Part shown: piece by piece, positions 7,241-46,109 of the stretch
Position numbering within the stretch: the first letter of the stretch is position 1
Layout: each line of letters opens with the position of its first letter
Virus record (IMG/VR): IMGVR_UViG_3300031452_000003
Coordinates: 866 to 64,865 of that record
DNA: 64,000 nucleotides
Origin: a virus
Direction: 5' to 3' (one strand)
The notes under the pieces: model-generated
The model's database searches: none
Told to the model about the DNA's origin: nothing
What the model saw: only the letters and a program-made list of their open reading frames with translations
Position numbers and translations under genes: made by a program

Positions 7241-7579
7241 CTACGGGGATTGTGGGGGATGGGGCGGGTGTGACGCAAGAGGGGGCGCGGGGCGGGCGTC
7301 ATCCTCCCGCCCGTCGCAAGGCGCGGGGCGCACGGGCGAGAGACGCGCGGCGGGCACCTGCACCAGCCCCACCCCCGGCACCAGCAGCATCGCCATCCCG
7401 TGCGGCCCCTGCGCGTCAACCGCCATGCCGCTGTCCGCGAGGCCCCTGACCCGGCAGGTCCCGGCCACGGACACCACCGGCTCGCCCCACAGCCCGTCCA
7501 GCGCGCCGCCCACGATGACCATCCCCCCCGCTGTCCGCCCCGCTGTCTGCCCCGCTGTCCGCTCGGTAGTGTGTGCCAT
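7241..7579 (-). CDS. Hypothetical protein
   Basis: MAHTTERTAG start after an AAAAGGAAAA RBS, inside ORF 7241..7792. Confidence 0.5.
   Translation of the reverse strand: MAHTTERTAGQTAGRTAGGMVIVGGALDGLWGEPVVSVAGTCRVRGLADSGMAVDAQGPHGMAMLLVPGVGLVQVPAARLSPVRPAPCDGREDDARPAPPLASHPPHPPQSP
7249..7280 (-). promoter_or_regulatory. Late-type promoter, copy 1 (lysis)
   Basis: TCTTGCGTCAC-N15-CACAAT. Confidence 0.75.
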
Positions 7580-7619
7580 GTTTTTCCTTTTCCGCCCTGA
7601 TTGACCTGATTGAACTGAT

Positions 7620-8792
7620 TCACCCGGCCTGCGCCGCCGACAGTCCGTGCGCCCGAATCTCTTCCCACACCTCCGGCAGGAGGTTCCGCTGTGCTCCGAC
7701 GAAGTGCAGCACCTTCGCCGGCTCCCCGAGCCGCGAGTAGTACACCCCGTCGGACCGGCGCTCCGTCTGAAACCAGTGGCCCCGTTTCCCATCGTAGGAT
7801 TGTATGTTCCATCCCGCCGCCATCTCCGCCGTGTCCCCGCCGTCCGACAGGCACAGGTTCATCAGCAGCTCGTCCTTGAAGCCCTCCTGGAACGCGCCCT
7901 CCACCCACAGGACCGCGCGCCGCCCCATCCGCCGGATGGCGGCGTCGAGGCCCTGCCAGGCGGCCCTGCCCCCGACCAGCAACCCCCCGTTGAAACAGAA
8001 GTGCCCGGTCGGGAAGCCGACCCGCCCAGTCAGCCACTCCCAGTCGGAGAGCGGGCAGCCCATGTGCCCGAAAACCTCGGCCAGGCGGAACCGCTCGGCC
8101 TCCACCTGCGAGCGGCAGCCCGCCATCACCTCCGGGCGCAAGCCCTCGGAGGTGCGCCACAGCGGGGCCAGCGGCGACAGGACGAGCATGTCGCATTCCA
8201 AGGCCAGTATCCGCTCCGCGTCCACCCACCGCGCGCATGAGTAGAGGACGCCCTTCACCGCCGCCGAGAGGGGGGCCGCCGCCTCGCAGCGTATCACGCT
8301 CGCGCTCGGGTGGTGACGCCGCACCCAGTCGTAGGTGTCGCCCACGGCGAAGACGATGACCTTCGTTTCCGTATCCTTCGTCTCCGTCTCCTCGCCCAGC
8401 CCCGCGCCGCCCCATCTGTACAGGCTCTGGAGCAGGGTGTCCAGCATCGGCTCAAAACCCGGAGAGGCGACCGTGACGACGGCCCGCTTGCAGGCAATCG
8501 GCTCTGCCGGTGCCTGCACGAACAGGCGCTCCAAGCAGTCCGCCTCCCACCCGAGCGGGGGCTGGCGCATCCGCTCCTCGCGCCACGCCTGCTCGACCAG
8601 GCCGTCCGGCACGGCCCGGAGGCCCGAGAAGGCCCGGACGCGCTCGCCGACGTCCGCCGAGGTCATCCGGCGCATCCTGGCCCTGAGCGCGGGGGGCGTG
8701 TCGCACTCGGGGTCAAAGGGCACGACTTCGGGGCGGGCGGCGGGAAGGATGACCATAAACTGCTCCTGGGATAAACTGCCCCCATCACTCAC
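7620..8792 (-). CDS. GT-A fold glycosyltransferase, GT8-like
   Basis: ECDMLV (DxD-like), FNGGLLV, DELLMN, WNIQ and KVLHFVG match GT8 motif order. GTG start overlaps the fibre stop. Confidence 0.75.
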   Translation of the reverse strand: MSDGGSLSQEQFMVILPAARPEVVPFDPECDTPPALRARMRRMTSADVGERVRAFSGLRAVPDGLVEQAWREERMRQPPLGWEADCLERLFVQAPAEPIACKRAVVTVASPGFEPMLDTLLQSLYRWGGAGLGEETETKDTETKVIVFAVGDTYDWVRRHHPSASVIRCEAAAPLSAAVKGVLYSCARWVDAERILALECDMLVLSPLAPLWRTSEGLRPEVMAGCRSQVEAERFRLAEVFGHMGCPLSDWEWLTGRVGFPTGHFCFNGGLLVGGRAAWQGLDAAIRRMGRRAVLWVEGAFQEGFKDELLMNLCLSDGGDTAEMAAGWNIQSYDGKRGHWFQTERRSDGVYYSRLGEPAKVLHFVGAQRNLLPEVWEEIRAHGLSAAQAG

Positions 8793-10168
8793 CCGACGGG
8801 GGTCGGCCCCGTCCACGTCGCGGCCACGCCCGTGCTGGCCGCGCCGGTCCAGCCGCGCCCCACCAGCGTCACCGCCAGAGTCACCGAATAGGGCGGATAC
8901 CCGGCCAGGCCCGCCGGGACGTAGACAGTCCAAGCGGCAACCCCGAGCGCCCAGAGGGCGTAGTCGGGGGCGACGACCAGGCCCCGCCGGTCGGGGATGA
9001 GCACGGGCTGGAAGCCGATGTCCGCGAAAACGCCCGCCACGCTGAAATCGGCGGCGACGGTGTAGTTCCCCGCCGAGGGGAACGAGGCCGCGAAATGTGC
9101 CAGCGTGACGACGCTGACGGGTTGCCCCGCCGCGCCCTGCGGGATGCCGAAGTTCAGGACCGCCGCTGACGCCGTGCCGCCGTTGGTGACGGTCGCCGCC
9201 GCCCCCGCCGCGAGGGTCGCCGTGGTGCCGACCGAAACCGTCGCCGCCGTCCCGTTCGTGCCGCTTGCGCCCGCCGCCCCGGCGGGGCCTTGCACTCCCT
9301 GCACCCCGCCCGGCCCCGCCGCTCCCTGCACCCCTTGGTCGCCCTTCGAGGCGAGCAGGGTCCACGAGGCCGCGTCCGTGCCGGGCTGAACACCCGTGGA
9401 CGCGGCCAGCGCCCCGTACACCGAGCCGCCGTAGGAGGCCACGTCGAAGGCAACATAGGCCGTCGCCGCCGCCCACGCGCCCCGCAGCGTGAAGCCCTGC
9501 CCCCGGACGCCCTGCTGGCCCTGCGGCCCCTGCGCCCCGCCCGGCCCCTGCGGCCCCGGCTGGCCCTGGACGCCCTGGCCCCCCTGCGGCCCCTGCGCGC
9601 CGGTCGCGTCCGCCCACTCGTGCCCGTCCCAGTAGCGGGGCACGGCGGGGGTCTGGGACGTGTCCACCCACAGCCGCCCCAAATCGGCGGGCGGCTGCGC
9701 CCCGCTGTAGGTCGCCGCGTAGGTCCGCCCGTTCGGCAGCCGCCCGTCGAGCGCCGTCAGCAGGTACGGCCCGTCGGCGGGCGCGGCCCCGGCCTGGGGC
9801 GCGGGCGGGAAGCCGCCGCCGGGCGGGAAGGAGGGTGGCCTGTAGACGCCCGAGCCTGGGAAAAACGGGGTCGTGCGCGCGCCCACGCCGTTCGGGTCGG
9901 GTGCGCCGCGCAGTACGCCCGTCGCCCTGTCCGTCGCCCTGCCCGTGCTGTAGCCGCGCGGCCCGCCCCCCTGCCCCTGGGCGGCGGGCGGGCGCGCGGC
10001 CCGCGCCATGATGGCCTCGGTGAAGGCCGTGGGGGCGGGCTGATTGGGCGTCCCGCGCCGCGCGAGCCGGTCCAGGATGTCCGGGGCCAGGCCCGACGAC
10101 GGCGTCGCGGGCGGCAGGGTCGCGTACTCGGTCTTAATTGGAGATTCGGTTTTAACGGTATCGGTCAT
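8789..10168 (-). CDS. Collagen-like tail fibre protein
   Basis: GXY repeats (GAQGPQGGQGVQGQPGPQG). CBM5/12-like segment AWAAATAYVAFDVASYGGSVY. Confidence 0.8.
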   Translation of the reverse strand: MTDTVKTESPIKTEYATLPPATPSSGLAPDILDRLARRGTPNQPAPTAFTEAIMARAARPPAAQGQGGGPRGYSTGRATDRATGVLRGAPDPNGVGARTTPFFPGSGVYRPPSFPPGGGFPPAPQAGAAPADGPYLLTALDGRLPNGRTYAATYSGAQPPADLGRLWVDTSQTPAVPRYWDGHEWADATGAQGPQGGQGVQGQPGPQGPGGAQGPQGQQGVRGQGFTLRGAWAAATAYVAFDVASYGGSVYGALAASTGVQPGTDAASWTLLASKGDQGVQGAAGPGGVQGVQGPAGAAGASGTNGTAATVSVGTTATLAAGAAATVTNGGTASAAVLNFGIPQGAAGQPVSVVTLAHFAASFPSAGNYTVAADFSVAGVFADIGFQPVLIPDRRGLVVAPDYALWALGVAAWTVYVPAGLAGYPPYSVTLAVTLVGRGWTGAASTGVAATWTGPTPVG

Positions 10169-10172
10169 GTGG

Positions 10173-17225: not shown

Positions 17226-17389
17226 GTGGCGTACCCCTGACCGAAGCAGATACCGGGTGAGAAGATACTGGTGAGAAGATACTGGTGAGCCGATACCGGG
17301 TGAGCCGATACCGGGTGAGCCGATACCGGGTGAGCCGACGCCGGGGCGGGGTGCGAGGATAACCTCCGCCCAGGCGTCGGCCTAGTCGG

Positions 17390-17421
17390 ATTGTGGAGGG
17401 CGGGGGGCGCGTGACGCAAGA
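17390..17421 (-). promoter_or_regulatory. Late-type promoter, copy 2
   Basis: TCTTGCGTCAC-N15-CACAAT. Confidence 0.75.
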
Positions 17422-17552
17422 TTAAGGACACGCCAAGTGCTGTTAGAGCACGGTCCTCATTTTTTTGCACAACTTATTCCACTTTTTATTTTACAGGCAT
17501 CACCTCATCAAAATACGCCGTATAGGAGAGGCATAAATCGCCTCGCGGGGAC

Positions 17553-17595
17553 TTGACATCGCCGAGCGAGTTTGGTATAATGGGTATGTTAGCAA
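17553..17595 (+). promoter_or_regulatory. Consensus sigma70 promoter with ATGTTAGCAA box
   Basis: TTGACA-17-TATAAT with TGn extension, then 4 nt and ATGTTAGCAA. Confidence 0.85.
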
Positions 17596-17660: not shown

Positions 17661-18713
17661 ATGAAACAGGGAAGAACGCTGACGGAACTGGCGGCGGAGA
17701 TTGAGCGCCAAGCGGGGGCCAAAATGGACCTGATGGCCGACACGCGCGAAATCACGCTCCGCTCGAACGGCACGAGCCGCTTGGCGGTCGCGGGGGCGGG
17801 CGACTTCGGCATCACGGACATGGCGCACGGGCAGATTGCGGAACACGCGGGCATCCCGAAGGGCTACTACGACCGGATGCGGGTCGAGGCCCCCGCCCTA
17901 CTGGACGGCAACGTGAACCACTGGCTCCGCGAGCGCCCCGCCAGGCGGCTCGTGCGGACGATGGACGGCGGCGCGCGGGCGTTCCTGTCCGACCGCTACC
18001 GCCGCCTAGACAACTTCGAGCTGATGGAGGCCGTGCTGCCTACGCTGATGGAGACGCCGGGCCTGTCCGTCGCGTCCTGCGAGGTCACGGACAGGCGGCT
18101 GTACCTGAAGGTCACGACCGACCGCATCCAGGGCGAGGTCGGCGTGGGTGATGTGGTGCAGGCGGGTCTGGTCGTCTCGAACAGCGAGGTCGGGGGCGGC
18201 GCGGTCAGCGTCCAGCCAATGAGCCTGCGACTGGTTTGCCGGAACGGGGCTACGCACCAGGACTTCGGCACCCGCAAGAGCCACGTCGGGCGGCTCATCA
18301 GCGACAGCGGCGAGGGCGAGGCGTTCCGGGTGTTCGCCGACGAGACGCTGCGCGCCGACGACGGGGCCTTCTTCCTGAAGGTGCGGGACGTGGTACGGGC
18401 CGCGCTGACGCAGGAGACGTTCGGGCACATCCTGGCGAGCATGAGGGAGGCGGCGGGCGTCCGCATTGAGGGCGACCCGGTGCGGGCGGTGGAGGTGCTG
18501 GCGGCGCGGCACCGGCTGACGGAGACCGAGCGCACGTCGTCGCTGCGCCACCTTGTCTCGGGCGGCGACCTGTCCCTGTGGGGGCTGGCGAACGCGGTCA
18601 CGGCGATGGCGCAGGAGGTGCCCTCTTACGACCGGGCGAGCGAGATGGAGGCGCTGGGCGGGAGCCTCCTGGCCCTGCCCGCGACGGACGTGCGGGCGCT
18701 GGTCGCCGCGTGA
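17661..18713 (+). CDS. DUF932-like protein (moron)
   Basis: MKQGRTLTELAAEIERQ start, RAFLSDRYRRLDN, SNSEVGGG and RLVCRNG motifs. Confidence 0.75.
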   Translation: MKQGRTLTELAAEIERQAGAKMDLMADTREITLRSNGTSRLAVAGAGDFGITDMAHGQIAEHAGIPKGYYDRMRVEAPALLDGNVNHWLRERPARRLVRTMDGGARAFLSDRYRRLDNFELMEAVLPTLMETPGLSVASCEVTDRRLYLKVTTDRIQGEVGVGDVVQAGLVVSNSEVGGGAVSVQPMSLRLVCRNGATHQDFGTRKSHVGRLISDSGEGEAFRVFADETLRADDGAFFLKVRDVVRAALTQETFGHILASMREAAGVRIEGDPVRAVEVLAARHRLTETERTSSLRHLVSGGDLSLWGLANAVTAMAQEVPSYDRASEMEALGGSLLALPATDVRALVAA

Positions 18714-22682: not shown

Positions 22683-22714
22683 ATAGTGTGCGGGGCGGGG
22701 GGCGTGACGCAAGA
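22683..22714 (-). promoter_or_regulatory. Late-type promoter, copy 3 (tape measure)
   Basis: TCTTGCGTCAC-N15-CACTAT. Confidence 0.7.
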
Positions 22715-23501: not shown

Positions 23502-23553
23502 AGGTATGGTTCCTCCTTTTTGCTCCGGCTTTTTGATTGAGAAACCGCCCGCG

Positions 23554-23703
23554 TCAGTTCGCACGGGGGGCATTGACGACGGAGGCGTCCAGGAGCACCC
23601 ACGCCATCGTCAGGAGGACGAGAACCCCGAGTCCACAGATGAGGGCGAACGCCCACGACCAAGCGCGGTCGCTGAAGGGGCTGGGTGTCTGCGCCATGTC
23701 CAT
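23554..23703 (-). CDS. Small single-pass membrane protein
   Basis: WSWAFALICGLGVLVLLTMAWVLL. Confidence 0.5.
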   Translation of the reverse strand: MDMAQTPSPFSDRAWSWAFALICGLGVLVLLTMAWVLLDASVVNAPRAN

Positions 23704-23812
23704 ACTTCTTTCCTGTTCACTTCCTCTGACACGAGTATACCAAGCAATTTCCGCGCTGAATAGCGAACATAGAGCAAACATATGGGGATTGTTCCAATCT
23801 AACTCCCATAGT

Positions 23813-26854: not shown

Positions 26855-26886
26855 ATTGTGGGCCGGGCGGGGTGCGTGACGCAAGA
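26855..26886 (-). promoter_or_regulatory. Late-type promoter, copy 4 (tail chaperone)
   Basis: TCTTGCGTCAC-N15-CACAAT. Confidence 0.75.
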
Positions 26887-26928: not shown

Positions 26929-26957
26929 TTGACATCGCCGCGCGAGTTTGGTATAGT
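26929..26957 (+). promoter_or_regulatory. Sigma70 promoter nearly identical to 17553-17581
   Basis: TTGACA TCGCCGCGCGAGTTTGG TATAGT. Confidence 0.75.
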
Positions 26958-26978: not shown

Positions 26979-27019
26979 GCCCCCAAACTGGTGAATACAG
27001 TTTGGGGGCTTTTTCTTTT
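26979..27019 (+). terminator. Intrinsic terminator (plus strand)
   Basis: Perfect 12-bp stem GCCCCCAAACTG/CAGTTTGGGGGC followed by TTTTTCTTTT. Confidence 0.8.
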
Positions 27020-29275: not shown

Positions 29276-29307
29276 ATGATGGGGCCGGCCCCGCCCGTGA
29301 CGCAAGA
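29276..29307 (-). promoter_or_regulatory. Late-type promoter, copy 5 (tail tube)
   Basis: TCTTGCGTCAC-N15-CATCAT. Confidence 0.7.
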
Positions 29308-33858: not shown

Positions 33859-33870
33859 CGTGTCTTCCTC

Positions 33871-34041
33871 CTGTAAATCCCTGCCGGCTAAAATCCTACC
33901 GACTGAAGCCTACCGACTGAAGCCTGCCGACTGAAGCCTGCCGACTGAAGCCTGCCGACTGAAGCCTGCCGGCTAAATCCTGCCGGCTAAATCCTGCCGG
34001 CTAAATCCTGCCGGCTAAATCCTGCCGGCTAAATCCTGCCG
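33871..34041. repeat. About 12 tandem copies of a 14-nt unit (CCTGCCGGCTAAAT grading to CCTACCGACTGAAG)
   Basis: Read directly. The unit includes the protease stop codon. Confidence 0.9.
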
Positions 34042-35507
34042 GCGGCGGCGGCGGCGTTGACCTTCGCGACGGTCTCGGCGGGCGTCAGGCCCTCGAACTC
34101 GGAGAGAGCGACCCCTCCGCCCTCGCCCTTGGCGGGGGGGCGACCCGGAACCTCATGCGTGTCCGCCTCGGTGAGTGCCGTGCGCCCCGCCGAGGCCACG
34201 TCCGTCAGCAGCTCCCGCAGCGCCCCGCGCCCGATGAGGACCGAGTCGGACAGGTCCACGCGGCCCACCTGGGCGACCACGGCGGCGGGCGCGTCGTACA
34301 GCGCCTCGTTCTCGGACAGGGCCACGCTCTGCCCGTCCACCAGCTCGGACAGGGCGACGGAAGCCGCGTGCCCCCCCTCGAAGGCCGCCTTGACCGCCTT
34401 CAGCGAGTCGGCGGGCAGCTTAAAGGTTTCGGCGAGCTGCACCACGAAGGCGTCCTGCTTCTCGGCGCGGGCGGCCTCCACCTGGTCCTGAAGTTTCCTG
34501 ATTTTGTCCGGTGTCATCGCCATTTTTCCTTTGGTCGTCGCCCTCGCGGTTGCTGTTTTCGCCGCTGTCGCCCTCGCGGTTGTCAGATTCACGGCTGTTA
34601 GATTTTCGCTCATCGGCACCCTGTCGCCCGCCCGGCCCGCAGCGGGCGATGCTGAGGCCGCATCCGCTTGCCCCCCGCCGCCCGGCGTCTGCCCGTCTGC
34701 CTCGACGTACTGGGGGCAGTTGCCGCTCCCCGCCGCCGCCGTCTTCAGCCCGAGGTCGCGGTCCGCCGAATCGTCGGCGAAGGGGCAGTCGTTGCCGAGC
34801 CGCGCGCACGTCCGGCACTGGTTCGGCAGGTCGGTCGGGTCGTAGCCGTCCGGCAGCCCCGCCACGTTCGGGTTTCCCGCCCCATCCGAGTTCGGGTTTG
34901 CGCCGGACGTTTTAGAGGCCCCTTTATTAGAGGCCCCTTTCGCCGCGAATCCGTCCGCCAGCACGACGGTCGCCTCGTCGCCACGCTCCGCCGCCAGCTC
35001 CGACAGATTCACGACCCGCGCCGGCCCCATCTGCTTGATGAAGGGGTAGTTGGTCAGGGCCACGTTCCGCAGAACCGCTTTGTGGCTCTTGCCGCTCTCG
35101 CGGTCCTGGTAGCCGTAGTCGATGGTGGGCGAGACGAAGGCGTACTGGCCCGTCCTGACCCGCTCGTAGTCGTCCGGGGTGGTGTAGCGGGCCAGCGCGA
35201 CCATCTTGCTCTTGCCGGGCCGCTCGGCGTCTGGGATGACGGAGACGCCCGCCCACGCCGCCGCGCGGTCGTCCTGGTGCTCGGTGTGGCCCACATGGAA
35301 GGGCACGGCGTCTTTCGCCATGCCCACGCCCGCCTTGAAGTTCTTTTCCAGCTCGCCCAGCATCGCGCGGTCAATGACGAGCCGCCCGCCGGGGGCCTTC
35401 GGGTGCGCCCACTCGCCTTCCCGGAGGATGGTGTGTTCGAGCGTCAGCCTCCCCTTGGGTGCGGGTCCGGCTTCCGAGAGTGCGACGATGAGGGACACGG
35501 GCGGCAT
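34029..35507 (-). CDS. Mu gpI-like prohead protease/scaffold
   Basis: GEWAHP, PFHVGH, YAFVSPT and VALTNYPF, with an acidic helical scaffold C-terminus. Confidence 0.85.
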   Translation of the reverse strand: MPPVSLIVALSEAGPAPKGRLTLEHTILREGEWAHPKAPGGRLVIDRAMLGELEKNFKAGVGMAKDAVPFHVGHTEHQDDRAAAWAGVSVIPDAERPGKSKMVALARYTTPDDYERVRTGQYAFVSPTIDYGYQDRESGKSHKAVLRNVALTNYPFIKQMGPARVVNLSELAAERGDEATVVLADGFAAKGASNKGASKTSGANPNSDGAGNPNVAGLPDGYDPTDLPNQCRTCARLGNDCPFADDSADRDLGLKTAAAGSGNCPQYVEADGQTPGGGGQADAASASPAAGRAGDRVPMSENLTAVNLTTARATAAKTATARATTKGKMAMTPDKIRKLQDQVEAARAEKQDAFVVQLAETFKLPADSLKAVKAAFEGGHAASVALSELVDGQSVALSENEALYDAPAAVVAQVGRVDLSDSVLIGRGALRELLTDVASAGRTALTEADTHEVPGRPPAKGEGGGVALSEFEGLTPAETVAKVNAAAAAGRI

Positions 35508-35977: not shown

Positions 35978-36009
35978 ATGATGGGGGGGGGCGGGGGCGT
36001 GACGCAAGA
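35978..36009 (-). promoter_or_regulatory. Late-type promoter, copy 6 (protease/capsid)
   Basis: TCTTGCGTCAC-N15-CATCAT. Confidence 0.7.
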
Positions 36010-36058: not shown

Positions 36059-36087
36059 TTGACATTCACGGCGCGGGGTTCTATAAT
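36059..36087 (+). promoter_or_regulatory. Consensus sigma70 promoter of the RyR-domain moron
   Basis: TTGACA-17-TATAAT. Confidence 0.85.
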
Positions 36088-36158: not shown

Positions 36159-36530
36159 TTGAAACCATTCTTATCCGTGACAGAAGTGGCGCACATCTGC
36201 CACGACGCCAACCGCGCCATTTGCCGCGTTACCGGGGATGACAGTCAGCCTCTCTGGGAAGACGCCCCCGAGTGGCAAAAAGAGTCGGCCAGGAAGGGCG
36301 TTCTGGCTGCCATCGAAAACCCGAACATCACGCCTGAGCAGCTCCATGAGAAATGGAGCGAGGCGAAAATCGCCGACGGGTGGAAGTTTGGGCCTGTCAA
36401 GGATGCCGACAAGAAAGAGCACCCCTGCCTTGTCCCTTACTGGGAACTGAAAACACCGCAGCGGTACAAGGATGTGTTGTTTCGGAGCATTGTCAACGCT
36501 TTGACAGGGGCGGGCGAATTGGCCGTCTAA
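36159..36530 (+). CDS. RyR (ryanodine receptor repeat) domain protein
   Basis: LHEKWSEAKIADGWKFGPVKDADKKEHPCLVPYWEL. Confidence 0.85.
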   Translation: MKPFLSVTEVAHICHDANRAICRVTGDDSQPLWEDAPEWQKESARKGVLAAIENPNITPEQLHEKWSEAKIADGWKFGPVKDADKKEHPCLVPYWELKTPQRYKDVLFRSIVNALTGAGELAV

Positions 36531-37881: not shown

Positions 37882-38438
37882 GGGTGGTTAGCGGGCGAGG
37901 CGGGCGGGATAGGAGGCGGGCGGGATAGGAGGCGGGCGGGATAGGAGGCGGGCGGGATAGGAGCCGTGCCGGCGTCCAAGGCGGCCTCGGCCTCGGCGTG
38001 ATAGGCATCCCGCGCCCGCTCCGCGCGCTGGGCGGCTTGGACGATGTGAGTCAGGCGGATGCCCGTGCGCGGCCCGCCCGCCGCCCGCACGGCGGCCTCC
38101 TGCGCGCGGTACTGGCCCGCCAGCCGGTGCATCCGGTCGGCGCAGGCGAGCAGGAACACGGCGCGGAGGTGGTTCCCGTCCCCCCGCGCCGCGCGCCCGG
38201 CGATGTCCGCCGCCCTGCCCTCGGGCGAGGCTTGAGACCCGCCTTGCGCGTCCTTACGCTCACCTGGCGAGTGAACCGAAGCAGCCGAAGGCGATGCCCC
38301 TGGCGTCGCGGTCGGGATAAGTTCAGGCGTCGAGATGAGTTCAGTCGTTGGGACGGGTTCAGTCGTTGGGACGGGTTCAGTCGTTGGGACGGGTTCAGTC
38401 GGACTTGGCGTCACAGTCTTGTGTTTCGGCGTCGTCAA
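37878..38438 (-). CDS. Hypothetical protein with PTTEPV repeats
   Basis: In-frame 18-nt repeat. Stop overlaps the MuF start. Confidence 0.5.
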   Translation of the reverse strand: MTTPKHKTVTPSPTEPVPTTEPVPTTEPVPTTELISTPELIPTATPGASPSAASVHSPGERKDAQGGSQASPEGRAADIAGRAARGDGNHLRAVFLLACADRMHRLAGQYRAQEAAVRAAGGPRTGIRLTHIVQAAQRAERARDAYHAEAEAALDAGTAPIPPASYPARLLSRPPPIPPASPANHP

Positions 38439-38917: not shown

Positions 38918-38961
38918 TTGCTAACGTGACTATTATAGCATAACCGGGGCGCGGGTGTCAA
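38918..38961 (-). promoter_or_regulatory. Sigma70 promoter with ACGTTAGCAA box
   Basis: TTGACA-18-TATAAT with TGn extension, then 4 nt and ACGTTAGCAA. Confidence 0.8.
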
Positions 38962-39004
38962 GCGGGGCGGGTGTCAAGCCGTGAGGCGGGTCAACCGTTA
39001 TGCT

Positions 39005-39305: not shown

Positions 39306-42300
39306 TTAGCCCGTCGCATTTTTCGAGGCGAGTTTCTTGGCGGCGAGTTTCTTGGCGAGCGCGGCGTCGTCATTCACGCCGGGCACCACGACCTCCGCCT
39401 TGATGCGCTTCGCGCCCGGCTGCCACTTCCAGCCGTCCGGGTCGCCTTCGAGTTTGTCCTGGCCCGGCTCGTGGACGGAGAGGACGCGGTATTCGTGATT
39501 GCGGGGCAAAGTCACCTCTTGCTCATCCTCGTTACTTTTCGTATACACGCCCGGCAGGACCGCCTTCGCCTCGGCGGGGACGTGGAGCTGGAGGTGGTGG
39601 TTCCCGTGCCAGGTGCCGGAGTCTGTACTGGTCGAACCGTAACCGGGGTCGATGAGCACCTTGCCTGGCTGCGCCGCCGCAATGTGCTTGGTTTCGTCGT
39701 CATAGGAAGAGGCGCTGACTTTGCGGCTGAGTATCATGTCTTTGCCGAGCGTCGTTTCGGGCCGGGCGAACAGCTTGTCCAGGTTCTTGACGTGGGCCTG
39801 CACTTCCGCGCTCGCCCCGGCGATGTTGCCGCCCCGCACGGCGGCGTTGATGTCAGAATAGCCTCCGCCCTTGAAGGCGGTGATGCCTGCCCTCTCAGGG
39901 GCGGGGAGCGGCGTCTTGTGGACGCCCTGCGCGTGGGCCTTCAGCTCGTGGTAGTCCTGCGGCTGATAGTCGCGCGGCAGCATCTCGGTTTTCTGCGCGA
40001 CGAGTTCGTCCTTCTTCGCCCCGAGGGCCGCCGTGCGCGCCGTCAGCATGGCCGCCGTGGAGGCGCGCCCGCCCGCGCTCATCTCGGGCGCGTGTTTGTC
40101 CACATACGCCTGCCAGCCGCCGTGTTTGGCTGAGAGGTCCTGGACGGCCTGAATCTGTTTCTCGACGCCGGGCAGCTCGTCCGCCGACCCGACGCCCGCC
40201 GCGTGGAACAGTTTGGCATAGTCGGGCGCGACGGCGGGGTCGGAGAGCGTATCCCACTCCGACGTCCGGTGGAGGGCGTCGGCGTTTTTCTTCTGGCCCT
40301 GGGCGCGGTAGAGCAGCGCGCCGCCTTGGTCGATGCGGTGGATGCCCTTGCCGTCCGCCCCGACCTTCATGTTGTTCAGCCCGGTTCCGGCGGCGTCGCG
40401 GTTCTGGGTCAGGACGTCGGCGACGTGCCCGCGCAGCGCCTCCTGGGCCAGCGCCGGGGTCAGCCCGTGCTGGCCGAGTTCCGCGCCGTCCACCCAGGGC
40501 GTCGCGTGGTAGTCCTTGCCGCCCTGGGAGAACAGCTTGGAGCGGGGCGCGCTGAGTCCCAGGTCGGAGTAGATGCGGTTCGCCAGCGCCTCGGTCGCGT
40601 TCTGGTCCTTGCCGCCTTTGTTTTCCTTGACGTACCACTTGCCGCCGTCTTTGGCCTGGTACAGCCCGCCGGGGTTGCTGCCCGCCCCGCTGCCGGGCGG
40701 CATCCCGAGCGGATGGTGCATGATGTCGTCGCCGGTCAGGTCCGCGTGGTGGGCCTCCTGCGCGGCGTCCTCATGCTCCTGGGGCGACAGGACGTTGTGC
40801 GGGCCGAGCGCGGCGGCGTGGGCCTGCGCCTGGGCGTCCCCGCCCTCCGCCGCCGCCTTCATGCCGGCGAGTGTGCCCATCGGGTGCTGACCGTAGGCGA
40901 GCGCCTTGTCGACGGAGTAGCCCGTGACCGCCTGATGGGGGCCGGACTGGTTGACGGCGTGGGCGGCGGCCATGACCTGCGCGAGGTCGCCCTGCGTCTT
41001 GACCGTGCCCGCCTTGGCCGCCGCCGCGAGTGCGTCCGAACCCTTGTTCGACAGCCCGTAGTCGGCCTTGGCCTTCCCGAGTTCGGCGGGCTTCACGGGC
41101 GCGGCGGCGAGGGTCGCCTTGACCGCCTGGCCGCCCTTGTGGACGGTGACGTAGGCGGGCTTGCCGTCCGAGGTCACCGGTCCGCCGGGGGCCGTGCCAG
41201 CGGCGGGGGGCGTGCCAGCGCCGGGAGGCGTCACTTCGGCGGCGGGAGGCGCAACAGGTTGGGGCGCAGCGGGCTGAGGCGGAGAGGGCGCGGAACCCGG
41301 CCCGTGCGTGAGCAGGGCGGCCTGGACGTGGGCCGGGTTGACCTTGCCCGTCCCTGCCGCCTGCTGGTTCTGAACGGCCTGGGTGACGACGGCCTCGGCC
41401 TGGGCCTTCGTCATGCCCTGGCCGAGCGCGTCCGCCATTTTCTTCTTGGCGTCCGGGTGGAGGCCCTTGCCCTTCACCGCCGCGTCCACGTCCGCCTGAG
41501 TGGCAGGTGGGTTCGCCTGAGTGGCGGGCGGCGGCTTGGCCGCCCCGTAGTCGGCGTCGTCCTTGAAGGGGTCGGGCTGCTGAGGCGCGGCGGGGAGGGC
41601 GGCCTGGTCCGTGGCCGGCGCGGGCACCTGGGGCGCGTCTACCCCTAATTCCTGCGAGGCATGGGCGTAGGCGTCCGCGAGGGAGCCGTGCACCGTCTGA
41701 TTCCAGTAGCCGTCGCCCTCTTTCGTGGCCGCGTGGAAGGTTCCGTCGGCCTTCTGGTAAACGTGAGCCATCTTGCCGTCGGTATTCTTGGTGGCGTAGT
41801 GCGGGAAGCTGTTATAAAGCGATTCCTCCCAGCCCGGCGCAACCGACTTCCCATCCCAAAGCGGGGCGGTGGGCTTGGCAGCGTCAGCCTCCCCTGCCTG
41901 TGCCTCAGCCTCAGCCTTCTGGGGCAGCGCGTGGTCGCCCAGGTGCGAGGCCATCCCCGGCTCGCCCGCCTGGAACGCGGCGAGGTCGTGGCCGTAGGGC
42001 AGGGCGGCGTTCAGGTGCTTCATCAGCAGCTTGTTGTGGCCGTCCGCGTTCTTGGCCGCCGACGCCATCGCCGCCGTCGCCGCGAGCTGGCCCTGCGTGA
42101 CACCGCCGCCCGCGACCAGGGAAGCTATCTTCTTCTTGACGTCAGGGTGGGCGTTCTGGCCCGCCAGCAGGGCGGCGGTGTGCTCGGGCGTGGCCGGCTG
42201 GTCCGCCTGCCCCCCCGACAGGGGGAACTTCTGGCCGTTAAGCGTGACGTGAGCATCCGGCGTGACGTGGCCGGGGGCGGACGGGACCGTTGCGGCTTCG

Positions 42301-44894
42301 TGAGCCGCCAGCGCCCTCTGCCCCGAGGCCGTGAGGAAGTGTTCGCTGGAATTGCCCGCCACCGGCACGATGTGGCCGGACGAGAGGCCGGACTGGATTG
42401 CGGCGTCCGGGAACTGTCCGGCCACCTTCGCCCCCAGCGCGTCCTGATTGTCTTGGAGGTGTTTCAGGACGGCGGCGTGGTCATCGTTTAGCAGCCCCGG
42501 TTTCGCCGTCCCCGCCGCCACTGGCCCCTCCGCTTCATTCCCCACGGGCGGGGCCTTCTGCGCCGCCGCCTGGCCCTGGGGCGTCAGGGAATACTGATTC
42601 GTGAATGGGAAACTGGGCTGCGGCGTTTCGGCGAGATGCCCCTCGCCCATCAGGTGCAGTGCCGCGCCCGAGATGTTGGCGCCGGGGTGGACGGTGGACT
42701 TGGCGGAGGCGGTGAGCGCGTAGTAGTCCTGTGGCCCGCCCGCGTGGAGCGCGGACAGGATGTGGGCCTTTAGCGCGTTGTGTTGGGCAAGCGCCTGCCC
42801 CCCGAGCGGCGTCACGGAATAGGCGGCGGATTGTCCCGGACCGGGCGGCGTGGCCTGTTTCGCAAGCCCCGTGTAGGCGAGGTGGGCCGTGTCGGCGGCG
42901 GCGAGGGCTTGTGTCCCGCCGTGCGCCGCCGTCAGCTCGTCCATGTCCGCCGACGGCTTCCCGGCCATCGCCCCCAGCAGGTTCGCCGATACGGGTGTGA
43001 GGTGGGGAACGACCGCACCGGCGTCGTCCAGCGCGACGACGCCCTGTGGCAGTTCAGTCAGGCTCGGGCCAGTCAGGCTCGGGCCAGGGACGGACTCGGA
43101 GAGGAGCGCCTTTGAGTCCTGCTCGAACTGCGGGTCGCGCACGGCAGGGGCCGGTGCTTGGCTCTCGGGCGCTTGACCCTCGGGTGCCGTCCGCGCCGCC
43201 TGTGCGCCCGCCTGTGGCCCGCCAGCGCCTTGGGCGGCGGCCTGTCCGCCCTGCGCCCCGCCCTGGTCAGCGCCCGGAGCCAGGCCCAGCGCCTGCGCGC
43301 CCTGCTGGTCCTGCTGGTCGGGGTCCGCGCCGGGGGCGAGGGGACGCCCGAAGGCGTCCAGCCCGTCCGTCCGCCTGACCATCTCGTACTTCAGGCCGAG
43401 GTCGTCCGCCCACCCCTGCCAGTCCGGGACCAGGATGCGGTCTTGGTTCGGCCCGACGAGGCACTGCCCACTCGTCATGGCCTGCACGGCGGCCATCGCG
43501 AACGCCTGCATGGCCTCGATGTTGGGGGCCGCATACGTGATGGCGGCGTCGGGGCACGTCCGGTCGTTGAACCGAACGAACTGTTTCACCGGCCCCTCGT
43601 TGACGTGGTACAGGAACTCGTCCAGGCGGCTCTTGACGGCGAGCGAGAACAGGTCCGTGTGCTCCTTGGCGAGTGCGTAGGAGCCGACGTCGCCCGACTG
43701 CATCAGCTTATCGGGGAAGAACAGCCCGAGCATCATCTGCCGGTGGCACAGGTCAATCACCTGCGTCATCCAATCGACGTGCGCGTCCAGCGGCAGCTCC
43801 TCGACCGAGTACAGGTCGTTGCCGTTCGGGTCGAGCTGGCGGGGGAAGACGGCGGTGGCGAACGAACGGAGCTGGCCGAGCTGGCTCATCAGGAAGTCGC
43901 CCGCGTCCTGCTGGACCGCCGCGCCCGTGGCGTCCACGCCCTGCGAGACGCGCAGCCCGGCGGGGTAGCGCCCGATGAGCGGCGGCACGGCCCCGCGCTC
44001 GACGGCGACCATCGTGGTCTCCCACAGAAACCGCGCCCACACCCAGAACGGGTACAGGCTCTTGGTGAGCGGCTGGCCGTAGGGGTTTCGGAACATCCCG
44101 CCCAGCGGGTAGTGGAACAGGCGCGACGGGGGCAGGAACGACTGGCCCCACGCCCACTGAACGGCCCCGGCGAACTGCCCCTGAGCCGACTGCCGCAGCG
44201 TCAGCGTGTCGTTCGGCAGGGGCACGAAGTCGCGGATGGCCGTGACGTAGGGGATGACCCGCTGAGGCGCGTCTGCGGGTGAGAGGCCCTGGGCGGCCAG
44301 GGCGGCGGCGGGGTCGTTGGTCGTGGGGGCCAGGTCCACGGGGACGTTGTAGCGCGTCTCCCAGACGACTTCGGCGTCGGCCCAGCCGAACGTCTGGGCG
44401 GGCATGACCGTCTCGCGCATGAGCTGGGGCAGGCGGGGGAGCAGGACGGACTCAATGAGGGCCTTCATGGACGAGTCGGGGCACGAGACGGACAGGTCGG
44501 CGGTCTGCATGACCAGCGCGTAGCCCAGCAGGCAGGAGCGGATGACCGGGTAGAGCGCCATCTCGTCGTACTCGGCGAGCGAGACGCGGTCGGGGTTGTA
44601 GACGCGCGACGCGCCGCCGCCGCTGCCGCCGCCGAAGAACGAGCCGGTCTGGGACAGGAGGCCGGTGCGCCCGACCTGGCCGAACTGGGGGAACTGCGTG
44701 AACCGGCCCGCGTCCGAGGTGGACAGGATGCTCAGGGCGTCGGCGGCCAGGACAGGGCGGGCATCCTTCGGGGCGCGGGCGTTCGTGGGGGGGCGGCCCC
44801 CGGCCATCACGGCGGCGGCGGGCACCGCGGCGGCGGTGACCGCCCGCGCGGGCGGCGGGGTGCCGGTGCCCGGTCGTGTGGTGCGCTTCGCCAT
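39306..44894 (-). CDS. Portal protein (Mu gp29/DUF935-like) fused to repeats, a HipA/PI3-4K-like kinase domain and an ADP-ribosyltransferase domain
   Basis: Portal at about aa 96-506 (FRNPYGQPL, GSYALAKEH). Kinase-like WYVK/TEALA/NRD...NN/RIDQGG. ART LSRKV/GSTS/EQE. Confidence 0.85.
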   Translation of the reverse strand: MAKRTTRPGTGTPPPARAVTAAAVPAAAVMAGGRPPTNARAPKDARPVLAADALSILSTSDAGRFTQFPQFGQVGRTGLLSQTGSFFGGGSGGGASRVYNPDRVSLAEYDEMALYPVIRSCLLGYALVMQTADLSVSCPDSSMKALIESVLLPRLPQLMRETVMPAQTFGWADAEVVWETRYNVPVDLAPTTNDPAAALAAQGLSPADAPQRVIPYVTAIRDFVPLPNDTLTLRQSAQGQFAGAVQWAWGQSFLPPSRLFHYPLGGMFRNPYGQPLTKSLYPFWVWARFLWETTMVAVERGAVPPLIGRYPAGLRVSQGVDATGAAVQQDAGDFLMSQLGQLRSFATAVFPRQLDPNGNDLYSVEELPLDAHVDWMTQVIDLCHRQMMLGLFFPDKLMQSGDVGSYALAKEHTDLFSLAVKSRLDEFLYHVNEGPVKQFVRFNDRTCPDAAITYAAPNIEAMQAFAMAAVQAMTSGQCLVGPNQDRILVPDWQGWADDLGLKYEMVRRTDGLDAFGRPLAPGADPDQQDQQGAQALGLAPGADQGGAQGGQAAAQGAGGPQAGAQAARTAPEGQAPESQAPAPAVRDPQFEQDSKALLSESVPGPSLTGPSLTELPQGVVALDDAGAVVPHLTPVSANLLGAMAGKPSADMDELTAAHGGTQALAAADTAHLAYTGLAKQATPPGPGQSAAYSVTPLGGQALAQHNALKAHILSALHAGGPQDYYALTASAKSTVHPGANISGAALHLMGEGHLAETPQPSFPFTNQYSLTPQGQAAAQKAPPVGNEAEGPVAAGTAKPGLLNDDHAAVLKHLQDNQDALGAKVAGQFPDAAIQSGLSSGHIVPVAGNSSEHFLTASGQRALAAHEAATVPSAPGHVTPDAHVTLNGQKFPLSGGQADQPATPEHTAALLAGQNAHPDVKKKIASLVAGGGVTQGQLAATAAMASAAKNADGHNKLLMKHLNAALPYGHDLAAFQAGEPGMASHLGDHALPQKAEAEAQAGEADAAKPTAPLWDGKSVAPGWEESLYNSFPHYATKNTDGKMAHVYQKADGTFHAATKEGDGYWNQTVHGSLADAYAHASQELGVDAPQVPAPATDQAALPAAPQQPDPFKDDADYGAAKPPPATQANPPATQADVDAAVKGKGLHPDAKKKMADALGQGMTKAQAEAVVTQAVQNQQAAGTGKVNPAHVQAALLTHGPGSAPSPPQPAAPQPVAPPAAEVTPPGAGTPPAAGTAPGGPVTSDGKPAYVTVHKGGQAVKATLAAAPVKPAELGKAKADYGLSNKGSDALAAAAKAGTVKTQGDLAQVMAAAHAVNQSGPHQAVTGYSVDKALAYGQHPMGTLAGMKAAAEGGDAQAQAHAAALGPHNVLSPQEHEDAAQEAHHADLTGDDIMHHPLGMPPGSGAGSNPGGLYQAKDGGKWYVKENKGGKDQNATEALANRIYSDLGLSAPRSKLFSQGGKDYHATPWVDGAELGQHGLTPALAQEALRGHVADVLTQNRDAAGTGLNNMKVGADGKGIHRIDQGGALLYRAQGQKKNADALHRTSEWDTLSDPAVAPDYAKLFHAAGVGSADELPGVEKQIQAVQDLSAKHGGWQAYVDKHAPEMSAGGRASTAAMLTARTAALGAKKDELVAQKTEMLPRDYQPQDYHELKAHAQGVHKTPLPAPERAGITAFKGGGYSDINAAVRGGNIAGASAEVQAHVKNLDKLFARPETTLGKDMILSRKVSASSYDDETKHIAAAQPGKVLIDPGYGSTSTDSGTWHGNHHLQLHVPAEAKAVLPGVYTKSNEDEQEVTLPRNHEYRVLSVHEPGQDKLEGDPDGWKWQPGAKRIKAEVVVPGVNDDAALAKKLAAKKLASKNATG

Positions 44895-45012: not shown

Positions 45013-45402
45013 TCATTCGTCGGCGTCGGTCATCATCGTCCGGGACAGGTCGAAGGCGGGCGCGGCGCGCGGCGCGGCGGAGGACACGTGCGGGGGGTCG
45101 TCGTCCGAGGCGGCGGCGTAGTTGCGCTGCGGACGGTACTTGCCCGCGTCGGTGCCGAACATGGAGAGAACATCCGCGTCCGTCTCGGTCAGCGGGAAGG
45201 ACGGCACGGTCGGACTTGGCACGGTCCGACTCAGAGATAAGGGGAGGTCCGGGGAGAGTGGGGCGGAGGCGGTCGTCGCCGTTTCCACCTGCTGCGCCGT
45301 TTCCACCGGCTGCTGCGTCTGCGGCAGGTGCATCCGGCCCTCCGCCACCACGCGCCCGGCCTCATCCTCCACCACCGTCAGCAAGTACAGCCTAATTCGC
45401 AT
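45013..45402 (-). CDS. Hypothetical protein
   Basis: 129-aa ORF in the head operon. Confidence 0.5.
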   Translation of the reverse strand: MRIRLYLLTVVEDEAGRVVAEGRMHLPQTQQPVETAQQVETATTASAPLSPDLPLSLSRTVPSPTVPSFPLTETDADVLSMFGTDAGKYRPQRNYAAASDDDPPHVSSAAPRAAPAFDLSRTMMTDADE

Positions 45403-45439
45403 TCGTCTCCGCCCTCATCCGACGCGCACGTCTCCGCCC

Positions 45440-46000
45440 TCATCCGCCCGGCTTGGGTGGGACCGTAGCATCGGACTTGGCACGGGCGGCGGCGGTCTCG
45501 GGCGTGTCCCCCTGGGTCTGGGGCGGGGCTTGGGGCTTCGACGCGCCCGCGCCCAGGGTGCCGAGGTTGACCGGGACGCGGGCGGTCCCCGTGCGGTCCT
45601 GCGCGACCAGCTTTTCGCCGCCGTTTTCGAGGGTGTTCACGCCGACAGAGTTCGGGAAGCCCGCGATGGCGGCGTAGTCCAGGGCGTAGGTGCGGGTCAC
45701 GACGACTTGGTTGTCCTCCTGGGCGTCGTCCAGGACGGCGGCGGCGGCCCCGGCTTCGAGTCCGTCGGCGTGGCCGCCCTGGGGAGCCTTGAGACCGGAG
45801 AGGTACTCCTTGTACTTGTCGGGGCGCGGGAACCCGTACAGGGACTCGAAAACCTTGTCGGCGGAGACGCCCGGCCCGAACTGGCAGTCGCCCCAGGCGA
45901 GTCCGTCCTCCGCGTCCATGAAGATGTAGCCGCCGGGGGTCTCCAGGGCCGTCGCCGGGTCCGCCTGCCGTCCGGTGAAAGGGTTGTTGTTGCTCGCCAT
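45440..46000 (-). CDS. Hypothetical protein, first gene of the head operon
   Basis: GGAGG RBS. Follows late promoter copy 7. Confidence 0.65.
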   Translation of the reverse strand: MASNNNPFTGRQADPATALETPGGYIFMDAEDGLAWGDCQFGPGVSADKVFESLYGFPRPDKYKEYLSGLKAPQGGHADGLEAGAAAAVLDDAQEDNQVVVTRTYALDYAAIAGFPNSVGVNTLENGGEKLVAQDRTGTARVPVNLGTLGAGASKPQAPPQTQGDTPETAAARAKSDATVPPKPGG

Positions 46001-46077
46001 CGGTGCCTCCTGAGCCGCCCGTGCGTCCTGGGCCGCCGCGAAAGAGGCGTCGGCCCAGGCGCGAAAGTCGTTGGCTC

Positions 46078-46109
46078 AGTGTGGAACGTCGGGGGCGCGT
46101 GACGCAAGA
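46078..46109 (-). promoter_or_regulatory. Late-type promoter, copy 7 (head operon)
   Basis: TCTTGCGTCAC-N15-CACACT. Confidence 0.75.

Follow-up and report, generated by a model that had tools for sequence, protein, structure and literature searches.

Seven short repeated sites in the 64,000-nucleotide stretch of viral DNA analysed here (the window) are probably late promoters of this phage group, combining a host-type -10 element with a box, laid across the -35 position, for a phage factor. What is established here is that the sites exist, have a fixed geometry, are conserved, are specific to the phages and are linked to interruptions of the late region; from these sequences we infer promoter activity, late timing and the requirement for a phage factor acting in trans. 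According to the mechanism proposed, each copy would precede one gene block of the virion, tail or lysis region and would present a -10 element YAnnnT and then, going upstream, an 18-bp spacer and the invariant box TTGCGTCA(C) across the -35. Host RNA polymerase would read the -10 element via its housekeeping sigma factor, while a phage protein from the early/middle operon would recognise the box as an activator bound at -35, as a sigma-remodelling pair or as a very divergent sigma factor, the promoters remaining silent in the lysogen and firing late. Separate copies would be needed because inserted, oppositely oriented or terminated accessory units break the late region, every conserved block having its own restart signal.

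The first-pass annotation had described seven 11-mers in one orientation, all intergenic and each set at a constant 15 nt from a particular hexamer, a description that exact matching and shuffling bear out. On the plus strand, GTGACGCAAGA occurs at 7270, 17411, 22704, 26876, 29297, 35999 and 46099, against an expected count by shuffling of 0.01 (none of 100 shuffles reached seven), and the whole 75,311-bp record contains no extra copy (0 forward, 7 reverse, 0 for the reversed control). Read on the minus strand, all seven copies show TCTTGCGTCAC, exactly 15 nt and then CAYNNT, the hexamers being, in coordinate order, CACAAT, CACAAT, CACTAT, CACAAT, CATCAT, CATCAT and CACACT; since the chance of CA[CT]NNT is about 0.4% per site by base composition (our own arithmetic), its presence at all seven is not due to chance. 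The minus-strand spacers are GC-rich, as had also been claimed, and C-rich. Every copy lies outside confident gene calls and 16-164 nt upstream of a start codon with a Shine-Dalgarno sequence, and a half-copy with one mismatch, TCTTGCGTCtC (26892-26902), is found 16 nt upstream of the copy at 26876. The features are collected in the table below.

Table. Predicted promoters of the two classes and candidate factor genes, in window coordinates; ortholog positions are those of the related contigs.
Feature	Coordinates	Strand	Elements	Context	Orthologs
Late copy 1 (predicted)	46078..46109	-	TCTTGCGTCAC-N15-CACACT	heads 186-aa / 129-aa / portal-ART block, start codon 46000	L114 (12074) and L116 (2075), ahead of portal block
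Late copy 2 (predicted)	35978..36009	-	TCTTGCGTCAC-N15-CATCAT	heads head block: 108 aa, 492 aa, 138 aa, capsid (32333-33301), further genes	all five relatives (footprint alignment A5)
Late copy 3 (predicted)	29276..29307	-	TCTTGCGTCAC-N15-CATCAT	belongs to tail-tube gene (27035-27925)	L010, L011, L012, L117 and L118, ahead of tube gene
Late copy 4 (predicted)	26855..26886	-	TCTTGCGTCAC-N15-CACAAT	heads 179-aa and 64-aa genes, start 26829	L116 (15087), ahead of 178-aa gene
Late copy 5 (predicted)	22683..22714	-	TCTTGCGTCAC-N15-CACTAT	16 nt ahead of likely start (22666) of 1162-aa gene	
Late copy 6 (predicted)	17390..17421	-	TCTTGCGTCAC-N15-CACAAT	heads 720-aa gene and subsequent tail genes, start 17225	L115 (6784), ahead of 720-aa gene
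Late copy 7 (predicted)	7249..7280	-	TCTTGCGTCAC-N15-CACAAT	heads last block (251 aa onward), start 7180	L115 (14827); -10 TTAAAT, one nt farther off
Canonical early promoter	61898..61926	-	TTGACA-N17-TACAAT	adjoins CI-like repressor gene; no late box nearby	
Canonical promoter	57943..57972	-	TTGACA-N18-TATAAT	within early/middle region; repeat family D12	
Canonical promoter	38932..38961	-	TTGACA-N18-TATAAT	heads accessory block between portal and head blocks	
Canonical promoter	36059..36087	+		divergent from copy 2; ahead of inserted RyR-domain gene (36186-36530, +)	
Canonical promoter	26929..26957	+		divergent from copy 4; 87% copy of the 17553 cassette (D20)	
Canonical promoter	17553..17581	+		divergent from copy 6; ahead of inserted DUF932 gene (17661-18713, +)	
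P0017	47220..47801	-	N-terminal half winged-helix-like	candidate trans-factor (lead only); after large terminase gene	
P0016	46401..47147	-	ParB/Spo0J-type HTH N-terminal domain	second, weaker lead; directly upstream of copy 1	

The sites keep one half of a housekeeping promoter and depart from the other. All seven window hexamers have A as their second and T as their sixth base, which is the TAnnnT pattern of housekeeping sigma-70; their first base is C, where many relatives have T (TATGAT, TACAAT, TAAAAT). The spacer between TTGCGT and the hexamer, made up of CAC and the 15 nt, measures 18 bp and so falls within the sigma-70 range of 17±1 bp at all sites. TTGCGT itself agrees with TTGACA at three of six positions, fewer than the at least four of six expected of a housekeeping -35, and the box shares only TTG with that element. 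The box is asymmetric, a partial GCGT-C-ACGC symmetry present in the window being lost in relatives. A canonical class, TTGACA-N17/18-TATAAT, mostly with TGn, is present in the same prophage, where it stands in front of the early operon and of the inserted accessory genes; scanning with the sigma-70 consensus detects these canonical promoters and none of the seven late sites, which form a class apart. The canonical promoter at 26929 is followed by a plus-strand terminator (26979-27009). At three of the late copies, duplicated divergent promoters make up back-to-back cassettes with the copy.

The proposal that the sites are promoters is well supported by comparison with related phages, since the box and a -10-like element at fixed spacing are kept at orthologous block starts in five relatives while the surrounding spacers diverge. 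Five related phage contigs from metagenomes, with capsid proteins 56-79% identical, carry the signal at the corresponding gene junctions, its core there being TTGCGTCA, 16±1 nt and YAnnnT; the relatives' sites were collected by searching for the box, so that part of its invariance there comes from the search, which did not bear on the -10, on strand, on placement between genes or on synteny. Three related contigs, together about 100 kb, hold 11 exact CTTGCGTCA sites, all on the gene strand and intergenic, ten of them with YAYNNT at the same spacing and one with TTAAAT one nucleotide farther, and two more distant relatives keep TTGCGTCA and the -10 at the head, tube and 1201-aa junctions. In lower-GC relatives (60-63% GC) several of the -10 elements are plain sigma-70 types (TATGAT, TACAAT, TAAAAT, TATTAT). 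When the head-junction spacers of six phages are aligned, TTGCGTCA, an 8-mer, is the sole invariant block, and the dinucleotide 5' of the box is uniform within a genome and varies among genomes (TC, GC, CC, GA, CG).

The window derives from a prophage of an uncultured Armatimonadota bacterium. The first-pass annotation had proposed checking how frequent the motif is in the host, and the count, made in five host-like Armatimonadota genomes that are relatives rather than the actual host, favours its reading: each genome of 4-5 Mb has 2-5 occurrences of the 10-mer, no more than of the reversed control, and the -10 is present at none of the 16 sites. The composite is not enriched either, with 7 occurrences in 23.5 Mb of host-like DNA against 5 for the control. 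The combination of box and -10 is thus a phage-specific signal and not a host-wide motif.

These comparisons bear on the alternative that a host sigma factor reads the sites alone, be it the housekeeping one (TTGCGT/18 bp/YAnnnT) or an alternative one, with no phage factor, the extra conserved bases resulting from cassette copying within the genome. By analogy, a housekeeping sigma on its own might be able to read TTGCGT, an 18-bp spacer and YAnnnT: TTG, the spacer length and the -10 A2 and T6 obey sigma-70-family rules, and the optimum of mycobacterial RNA polymerase, TTGCGA-N18-TANNNT, has nearly the same -35, an equal spacer and the same type of -10 (PMC1616969). Profile searches found no phage factor, as this alternative expects, and the uniform 5' dinucleotide within each genome is what copy-and-paste or gene conversion would give. 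Mycobacteria, however, belong to another phylum, and CGTCA is invariant though the capsids are just 56-79% identical and the spacers otherwise unalignable, a conservation between genomes that copying within a genome does not explain. The same phage uses near-perfect TTGACA-N17-TATAAT for factor-independent expression, unregulated virion and lysis promoters are hard to square with lysogeny, and the regulon of a host alternative sigma is countered by the composite being unused in host-like genomes. Reading by host sigma alone is unlikely, though far from negligible.

Copies had been said to precede virion or lysis genes, a claim verifiable in part: the downstream genes that could be identified encode portal, capsid, tube and a collagen-like fibre, most others being without family; in the relative L115 the last block contains a GH25 lysozyme. 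The further claim that most copies mark places where the late operon resumes after an insert holds clearly at three of the seven, 35999, 22704 and 17411, and is supported by the comparison of the 1162-aa junction across genomes, but it does not hold at 29297: the insert here follows the copy, and relatives lacking any insert have the motif at this junction. There a TnpB element on the plus strand (28022-29218) now parts the copy from the tail-tube gene, and, as a correction, the ORF immediately downstream of the copy is spurious. Copies do sit at the borders of inserts. Inserts divide the 64-aa/1162-aa junction in the window, L010, L012 and L117, each of which has a full or degenerate copy, while in L113 and L116 the 179-64-1162 block is located elsewhere and uninterrupted, with no copy ahead of the 1162-aa-type big gene; a copy before this gene occurs only in genomes in which an insert splits the junction.

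Since block order varies among genomes and inserts abut the sites, the repeats might instead be recombination linkers or targets at module borders, or sites for packaging, partition or replication proteins, with no role in transcription. The back-to-back cassettes with duplicated divergent promoters speak for linkers, and T4-type promoter-terminator cassettes (PeSLs), which are likewise repeated regulatory cassettes at the borders of inserted, deleted or moved blocks, are believed to promote the shuffling of modules (PMC2839356, PMC4122927); a hairpin with a 13-bp stem and a T-run, clear at 22704 only, lies directly upstream of that copy and adds to the likeness. PeSLs, however, are early promoters flanking accessory genes, whereas the repeat here heads conserved core blocks and the accessory inserts have canonical promoters. 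The linker explanation leaves the fixed-spacing -10, the strict sense orientation and the 16-164 nt to start codons unaccounted for, and partition, replication and packaging sites are usually clustered or symmetric. As T4 cassettes also function as promoters, linking would be a side effect more than a rival, and a role without transcription is most improbable.

A box acting chiefly as a phage repressor site, in the manner of the stoperators by which cluster A mycobacteriophages block transcription in the lysogen, is very unlikely, if slightly less so. Like stoperators, the sites are asymmetric, exact, intergenic, present in many copies and in one orientation relative to transcription (PMC9283540, PMC6550527). 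In stoperator systems, however, the operator of the early promoter has the same sequence, and here the immunity region (61.4-62.1 kb), with the early promoter and its operator, lacks a copy even at up to two mismatches and has different repeats, namely two copies of CGTCCTAGAAA and a palindrome whose arms measure 15 bp. The 292-aa repressor belongs to the S24 CI/LexA type, which normally binds symmetric sites, and stoperators have no -10 at fixed spacing, compared with seven of seven copies here. Repression at the box would be compatible with promoter function.

For the phage protein that would read the box in the proposed late promoters, the searches give leads only. The first-pass annotation had noticed no recognisable sigma factor or late activator, and profile searches agree: no homologue of sigma, RNA polymerase, Mor/C, Ogr, Q, RinA or MotA/AsiA was detected in the phage record by a PHROGs scan of 30 called genes and a Pfam scan of most called genes, although analogues of MotA/AsiA with no sequence similarity would escape both. 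A six-frame search of the 75-kb record with TIGR02937 and PF04542 finds nothing, very divergent phage sigmas being able to escape such models; PF08281 gives two sub-threshold HTH hits, and no sigma region 2 or ECF-type match appears anywhere in the record. Two predicted DNA-binding proteins, P0017 and P0016, are encoded directly upstream of copy 1, an arrangement that is syntenic in L116, and the P0017 family, also present in L114, is confined to this phage group. Their structural models are poor (mean pLDDT 57-58) with middling fold matches (Z 5.9-7.7), and both are weak candidates for the late-box factor.

Known phage systems offer partial parallels. The temperate phages Mu (C protein) and P2/P4 (Ogr/Delta) have several late promoters, each heading a morphogenesis block and combining a poor -35 with a usable -10; their activator is encoded last in the operon that comes before, and it recognises dyad-symmetric sites that overlap the -35 or lie upstream of it. 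The present phage resembles them in its several predicted late promoters, poor -35 and usable -10 and in the position that its activator gene would have, and its portal is Mu-like, but the box is asymmetric and hits to the Mor/C or Ogr families are lacking. In SPO1, gp28 and gp33/34 are phage-encoded sigma factors, and promoters of this kind, like the sites, have an element in the -35 region that is strictly conserved and form a separate class serving later genes, whereas the -10 here looks housekeeping-type. T4 middle promoters, which depend on sigma appropriation by MotA/AsiA, resemble the seven sites in having a phage box in place of the -35, a host-type -10 at fixed distance and many copies (PMC2988021, PMC6755090), and their reuse of host core polymerase is a likeness to the reading proposed here. 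The MotA box, (a/t)(a/t)(a/t)TGCTTtA, nonetheless lies 12±1 bp from the -10 and is centred at -30, as against 16 bp for TTGCGTCA (PMC2988021), and the T4 promoters head middle genes whereas the sites here head late virion genes.

A more far-reaching form of the late-promoter reading, possible but less likely than not, is that TTGCGTCA is read by a previously undescribed protein found in this phage group alone, such as a member of the P0017 family, which would redirect Armatimonadota RNA polymerase, and that the same 32-bp cassettes double as recombination linkers. Such a protein would either replace or remodel sigma region 4, as a new sigma-appropriation-like system, or be an unrecognisably divergent sigma factor, and the linkers would permit the reshuffling of virion gene blocks and accessory inserts. 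If true, no Armatimonadota phage would have had its transcription programme defined before this one.

Seven copies of one 11-mer, the late sites, stand on the plus strand alone, as the first-pass annotation had described (0.01 expected); the rest of the record has none. Read on the gene strand, each consists of TCTTGCGTCAC, 15 nt and then, in coordinate order, CACAAT, CACAAT, CACTAT, CACAAT, CATCAT, CATCAT or CACACT, and each falls between confident genes, the partner hexamers and intergenic position reported earlier likewise holding. No further composite sites were gained by a relaxed search (TTGCGTCA, one mismatch, variable spacer). Start codons with Shine-Dalgarno sequences follow 16-164 nt after the hexamer ends, with the exception of the copy at 29297 (copy 3, counted from the right), which is cut off from the tube gene by a plus-strand TnpB element. 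With TTGCGT taken as the -35, the spacer is 18 bp and the -10 is YAnnnT, the critical positions A2 and T6 being invariant across the window's sites. Since this -35 matches TTGACA at only three of six positions, a sigma-70 consensus scan misses the late sites.

Coordinates of sites, promoters and other features in the window, its right flank and related contigs
Feature	Coordinates	Strand	Remark
Late sites (11-mer)	7270, 17411, 22704, 26876, 29297, 35999, 46099	plus	copy 7 leftmost, copy 1 rightmost
Canonical promoters	61926, 57972, 38961	minus	
Canonical promoters	17553, 26929, 36059, 28022	plus	
Canonical family of a relative (L114/L112)	8770, 10627; L112 12201	plus	
Canonical family of a relative (L114/L112)	4254, 2949, 1119	minus	
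Cassette, 60 nt	17529-17588, 26905-26964	plus	87% identical
Terminator	26979-27009	plus	
Element, 47 nt	1228-1274, 38918-38964, 57929-57975		three copies
TnpB element	28022-29218	plus	Cas12f1-like TNB, OrfB_IS605
Capsid gene	32333-33301		
Portal-ADP-ribosyltransferase	39306-44894	minus	1862 aa
P0016	46401-47147	minus	syntenic in L116
P0017	47220-47801	minus	syntenic in L116 and L114
Small ORF	46130-46363		ends 20 nt before copy 1
Tail-region insert	22773-26250		62-64% GC
68-nt stretch	25744-25811, 58101-58168		84% identical
Direct repeat	61858-61885		17-bp pitch
Palindrome	61931-61965		15-bp arms
Repressor and HTH genes	62.1-63.5 kb	plus	
Tandem repeats	33864-34059, 17241-17343, 37897-37976, 38311-38400, 61012-61079, 62119-62208, 62968-63129		
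Tubulin_2/SHOCT protein (L008)	6270-9632		1120 aa
Large terminase of a relative (L114)	4283-7495		1070 aa

Close DNA relatives are absent among deposited phages; IMG/VR single-protein scans with the 720-aa protein and the capsid protein gave no matches, capsid alignment against IMG/VR and GTDB species genomes no relatives, and capsid alignment against 301 Armatimonadota genomes three remote matches only. Relatives were obtained solely from metagenome contigs, five in number, found via capsid homologues (56-96% identity) and read, contig by contig, through loci L010; L011, L113, L115 and L116; L012, L112 and L114; L117; and L118. In the three closer contigs all 11 exact CTTGCGTCA sites are intergenic and on the gene strand, with none on the opposite strand, and they keep the same spacing to YAYNNT apart from one, which has TTAAAT instead, one nt later. 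They are orthologous to the window's sites, preceding the portal block, the head block, the tube gene and the 179-aa, 720-aa and 251-aa genes. The two more distant contigs carry GATTGCGTCAC or CGTTGCGTCA(T/A), with TAAAAT, CACAAT, TATTAT or CACACT at the right distance, and the universal core is therefore TTGCGTCA, 16±1 nt and YAnnnT. The two bases 5' of TTGCGTCA are uniform inside each genome and differ among genomes, and when the head-junction spacers of six phages are aligned TTGCGTCA is the sole invariant block. Relatives of lower GC content (60-63% GC) lack the C-rich spacer, and several of their -10 hexamers are of the ordinary TAnnnT type, so the window's GC-rich spacer and the C at -10 position 1 look compositional; a C-rich spacer was rejected as a signal on this ground.

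Recurrence of the signal at orthologous junctions in five contigs, a comparison proposed at the outset, lends strong support, by comparative anatomy, to the interpretation of the late sites as promoters; we infer that the factor reading them acts in trans and that their timing is late. If the sites served only recombination or structure, their -10, strand and position would be left without explanation. Other promoter families were also tried. A sigma-54 reading (GG/GC at -24/-12) was rejected by eye, GG not being found upstream of TTGC; an ECF-type reading, with CGTC as the -10, was rejected for want of conservation 16-17 nt upstream; and a sigma-32-like reading (CTTG ... CCCCATnT) was rejected too, CCCCAT being present in only two or three window sites and lost in relatives.

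In five host-like genomes (23.5 Mb) the CTTGCGTCA 10-mer occurs two to five times per genome, not above its reversed control, a result that bears on the frequency check suggested by the first-pass annotation. The hexamer partner is present at none of those 16 places, and the composite TTGCGTCA-N16-YAYNNT is found 7 times against 5 for the control. Given this lack of excess, the motif is neither a general host promoter nor a host regulon motif, and the signal appears to be phage-specific, the five genomes compared being relatives of the host, not the host itself. A literature search on the 10-mer returned unrelated primer or sequence matches only. Direct reading of the late sites by a host sigma is possible, as the optimal promoter of the mycobacterial polymerase, TTGCGA-N18-TANNNT (PMC1616969), is similar, but it leaves unexplained the invariance of CGTCA across diverged phages, the use of TTGACA elsewhere in the same phage and the expected silence of late genes in a lysogen.

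The sigma-70 consensus scan found a second class of near-perfect TTGACA-N17/18-TATAAT promoters, mostly with TGn and all intergenic. Counting the late sites, the phage has, as judged from motifs, two promoter classes, the canonical one being used where expression free of a phage factor would be expected. The 61926 promoter heads the early operon and adjoins the repressor gene; three plus-strand promoters diverge from a late copy, and those on this strand would drive the inserted genes for DUF932, a RyR-domain protein and TnpB. The TnpB gene, antisense to the late transcript and with its own TTGCAA-N18-TATAAT promoter, sits between late copy 3 and the tail-tube gene, where in relatives the late promoter comes directly, or with one small gene, before the tube gene. 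In the 60-nt cassette a canonical promoter faces away from a late one. The 26929 promoter points antisense into the tube gene and meets a strong terminator within about 25 nt, so it is a very short transcription unit or else what is left of an insert since lost. On the minus strand, the 47-nt element reads as a canonical promoter, after which comes a start region that is conserved (TATAATAG.. ACGTTAGCAA) and may be a shared leader or an operator over the start site. The relative read as L114/L112 has its own near-identical canonical family (TTGACAATTTTCAAGCTATTTGGTAWGAT), with at least six copies in early and accessory regions, and the two-class layout is therefore common to the phage group.

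The window, bases 866-64865 of a 75.3-kb IMG/VR record, is an integrated prophage with host flank, having a tyrosine integrase at its left end and, on the right side, a CI/LexA-type S24 repressor and an HTH gene, past which lie a tubulin-like gene, Dxs and a TPR gene. The Dxs is 80-85% identical to Capsulimonadaceae/Armatimonadota Dxs proteins, which identifies the host as an Armatimonadota bacterium; for a 10-kb stretch and for the capsid gene, the datasets listed as containing this DNA come from DNA sequencing of rock metagenomes, with no RNA dataset among them. The right flank (L008) encodes, in the interval from the immunity region to the host Dxs, a protein with N-terminal Tubulin_2 (E 1.6e-69) and C-terminal SHOCT, which may be of prophage or of host origin. 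In the immunity region CGTCCTAGAAA forms a direct repeat just downstream of the early promoter, and a palindrome (CGTCCGAATAAATAA / TTATTTATTCGGACG) immediately precedes the -35 of that promoter; both are likely operators. Reading the late box as a stoperator-like repressor site would fit the asymmetry and orientation of the sites (PMC9283540), but fails, as the immunity region, with repeats of its own, lacks the box, and as the box is accompanied by a fixed -10 partner.

From 1.4 to 61.4 kb nearly all phage genes lie on the minus strand; they run, from right to left, through replication protein O and DnaB, a resolvase-like gene and DNA methylase, a terminase-region HTH protein and the large terminase, P0017 and then P0016, a Mu-type portal fused to an ADP-ribosyltransferase, an accessory block and the capsid protein, the tail tube (Phage_tube_2 in relatives), large tail proteins with a collagen-like fibre, and a last block, whose version in one relative includes a GH25 lysozyme. 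The majority of these proteins fall into no Pfam or PHROGs family, and the promoter signature, by marking module borders, aids annotation here. The portal (PF06074) and C-terminal ADP-ribosyltransferase (PF03496) form one ORF, with a weak PHROG match to Alt-like RNA-polymerase ADP-ribosyltransferase; they are encoded separately in the relative L116 (691 and 220 aa), and in L117 and L112/L114, as in the window, the portal lies in a very long ORF (about 1900-2100 aa). The L114 terminase has a homing-endonuclease insertion (intein-type Hom_end/LAGLIDADG) that the window's 735-aa terminase lacks. Short tandem repeats (12-18 nt units, 3-11 copies) are numerous in intergenic leaders and gene ends, among them a 14-nt unit repeated 11 times directly after the 492-aa head-block gene, ahead of the 138-aa gene upstream of the capsid gene. 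The low-GC insert in the tail region carries HTH genes and plus-strand ORFs and shares the 68-nt stretch with the early region, which suggests that part of a replication or early module was duplicated there.

Most copies had been placed where the late operon resumes after an insert, and this stands for 17411, 22704 and 35999 and not for 29297. In the contig read as L113/L116 the 179-aa, 64-aa and 1162-aa genes are contiguous, with one copy ahead of the block and none before the 1162-aa gene. The 64-aa and 1162-aa genes are parted by foreign or opposite-strand DNA in the window, L010, L012 and L117, and in each of these a full or degenerate copy directly precedes the 1162-aa gene; the window's copy comes after a strong hairpin with a T-run closing the insert. 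The pattern is what a restart promoter would be expected to show. The tube junction has a copy in all six genomes, insert or no insert, and the restart rule is therefore not absolute. Because block order varies among genomes, the 179-64-1162 block being elsewhere in L113/L116, late cassettes may double as linkers for recombination, a role proposed for T4-type PeSLs (PMC2839356, PMC4122927).

The earlier failure to recognise a sigma or late-activator gene was borne out: a six-frame search found no sigma region 2 and no ECF-type sigma, two sub-threshold region-4-like HTH matches falling in the terminase-region protein and an insert gene, and Pfam/PHROGs scans of most called genes found no RNA polymerase, Mor/C, Ogr, Q, RinA/ArpU or MotA/AsiA. 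Late activators are often encoded at the end of the preceding operon, and P0017 and P0016, both predicted to bind DNA, are encoded at such a place, with the large terminase on one side and the first late copy on the other. The P0017 family has four members in 5.8 billion clusters, all within this phage group, and its model (weak, pLDDT 57) matches almost exclusively winged-helix domains (Z 6-7.7). The N-terminal domain of P0016 resembles the ParB/Spo0J HTH (Z 5.9, rmsd 2.7 Å, 63 residues); this type of domain is a widespread module, fused to phage DNA methylases, which makes P0016 the less specific candidate. As putative readers of the box, both are leads, not findings. A PDB sequence search with P0016, P0017 and the 219-aa protein gave nothing significant, and the small ORF before copy 1 was set aside, being without similarity to the ORFs there in L116 or L114.

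Among the closest functional parallels are Mu and P2, with their multi-promoter late regulons. The T4 middle promoters, in which a phage box replaces the -35 beside a host -10 (PMC2988021), are another. The late sites have neither the defining sequence nor the defining geometry of the T4 middle and Mu/P2 families and are therefore a new case of a general kind, the phage-specific late promoter class. Armatimonadota is a phylum with few cultured members, and nothing is known, as far as found in the literature, of gene regulation in its phages; for a phage-host system that had gone unstudied, the late sites offer a regulatory signature that is clean, conserved and open to testing. The strategy is familiar among phages, and would be a new principle only if the reader of the box proves novel. 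Its value is thus that of a clean new example and an entry point: the 32-bp late site is usable as bait for the regulator, and the two-class layout maps the lytic programme of a new prophage group in a form that can be tested, early and accessory genes having canonical promoters and the virion blocks a box private to the phage.
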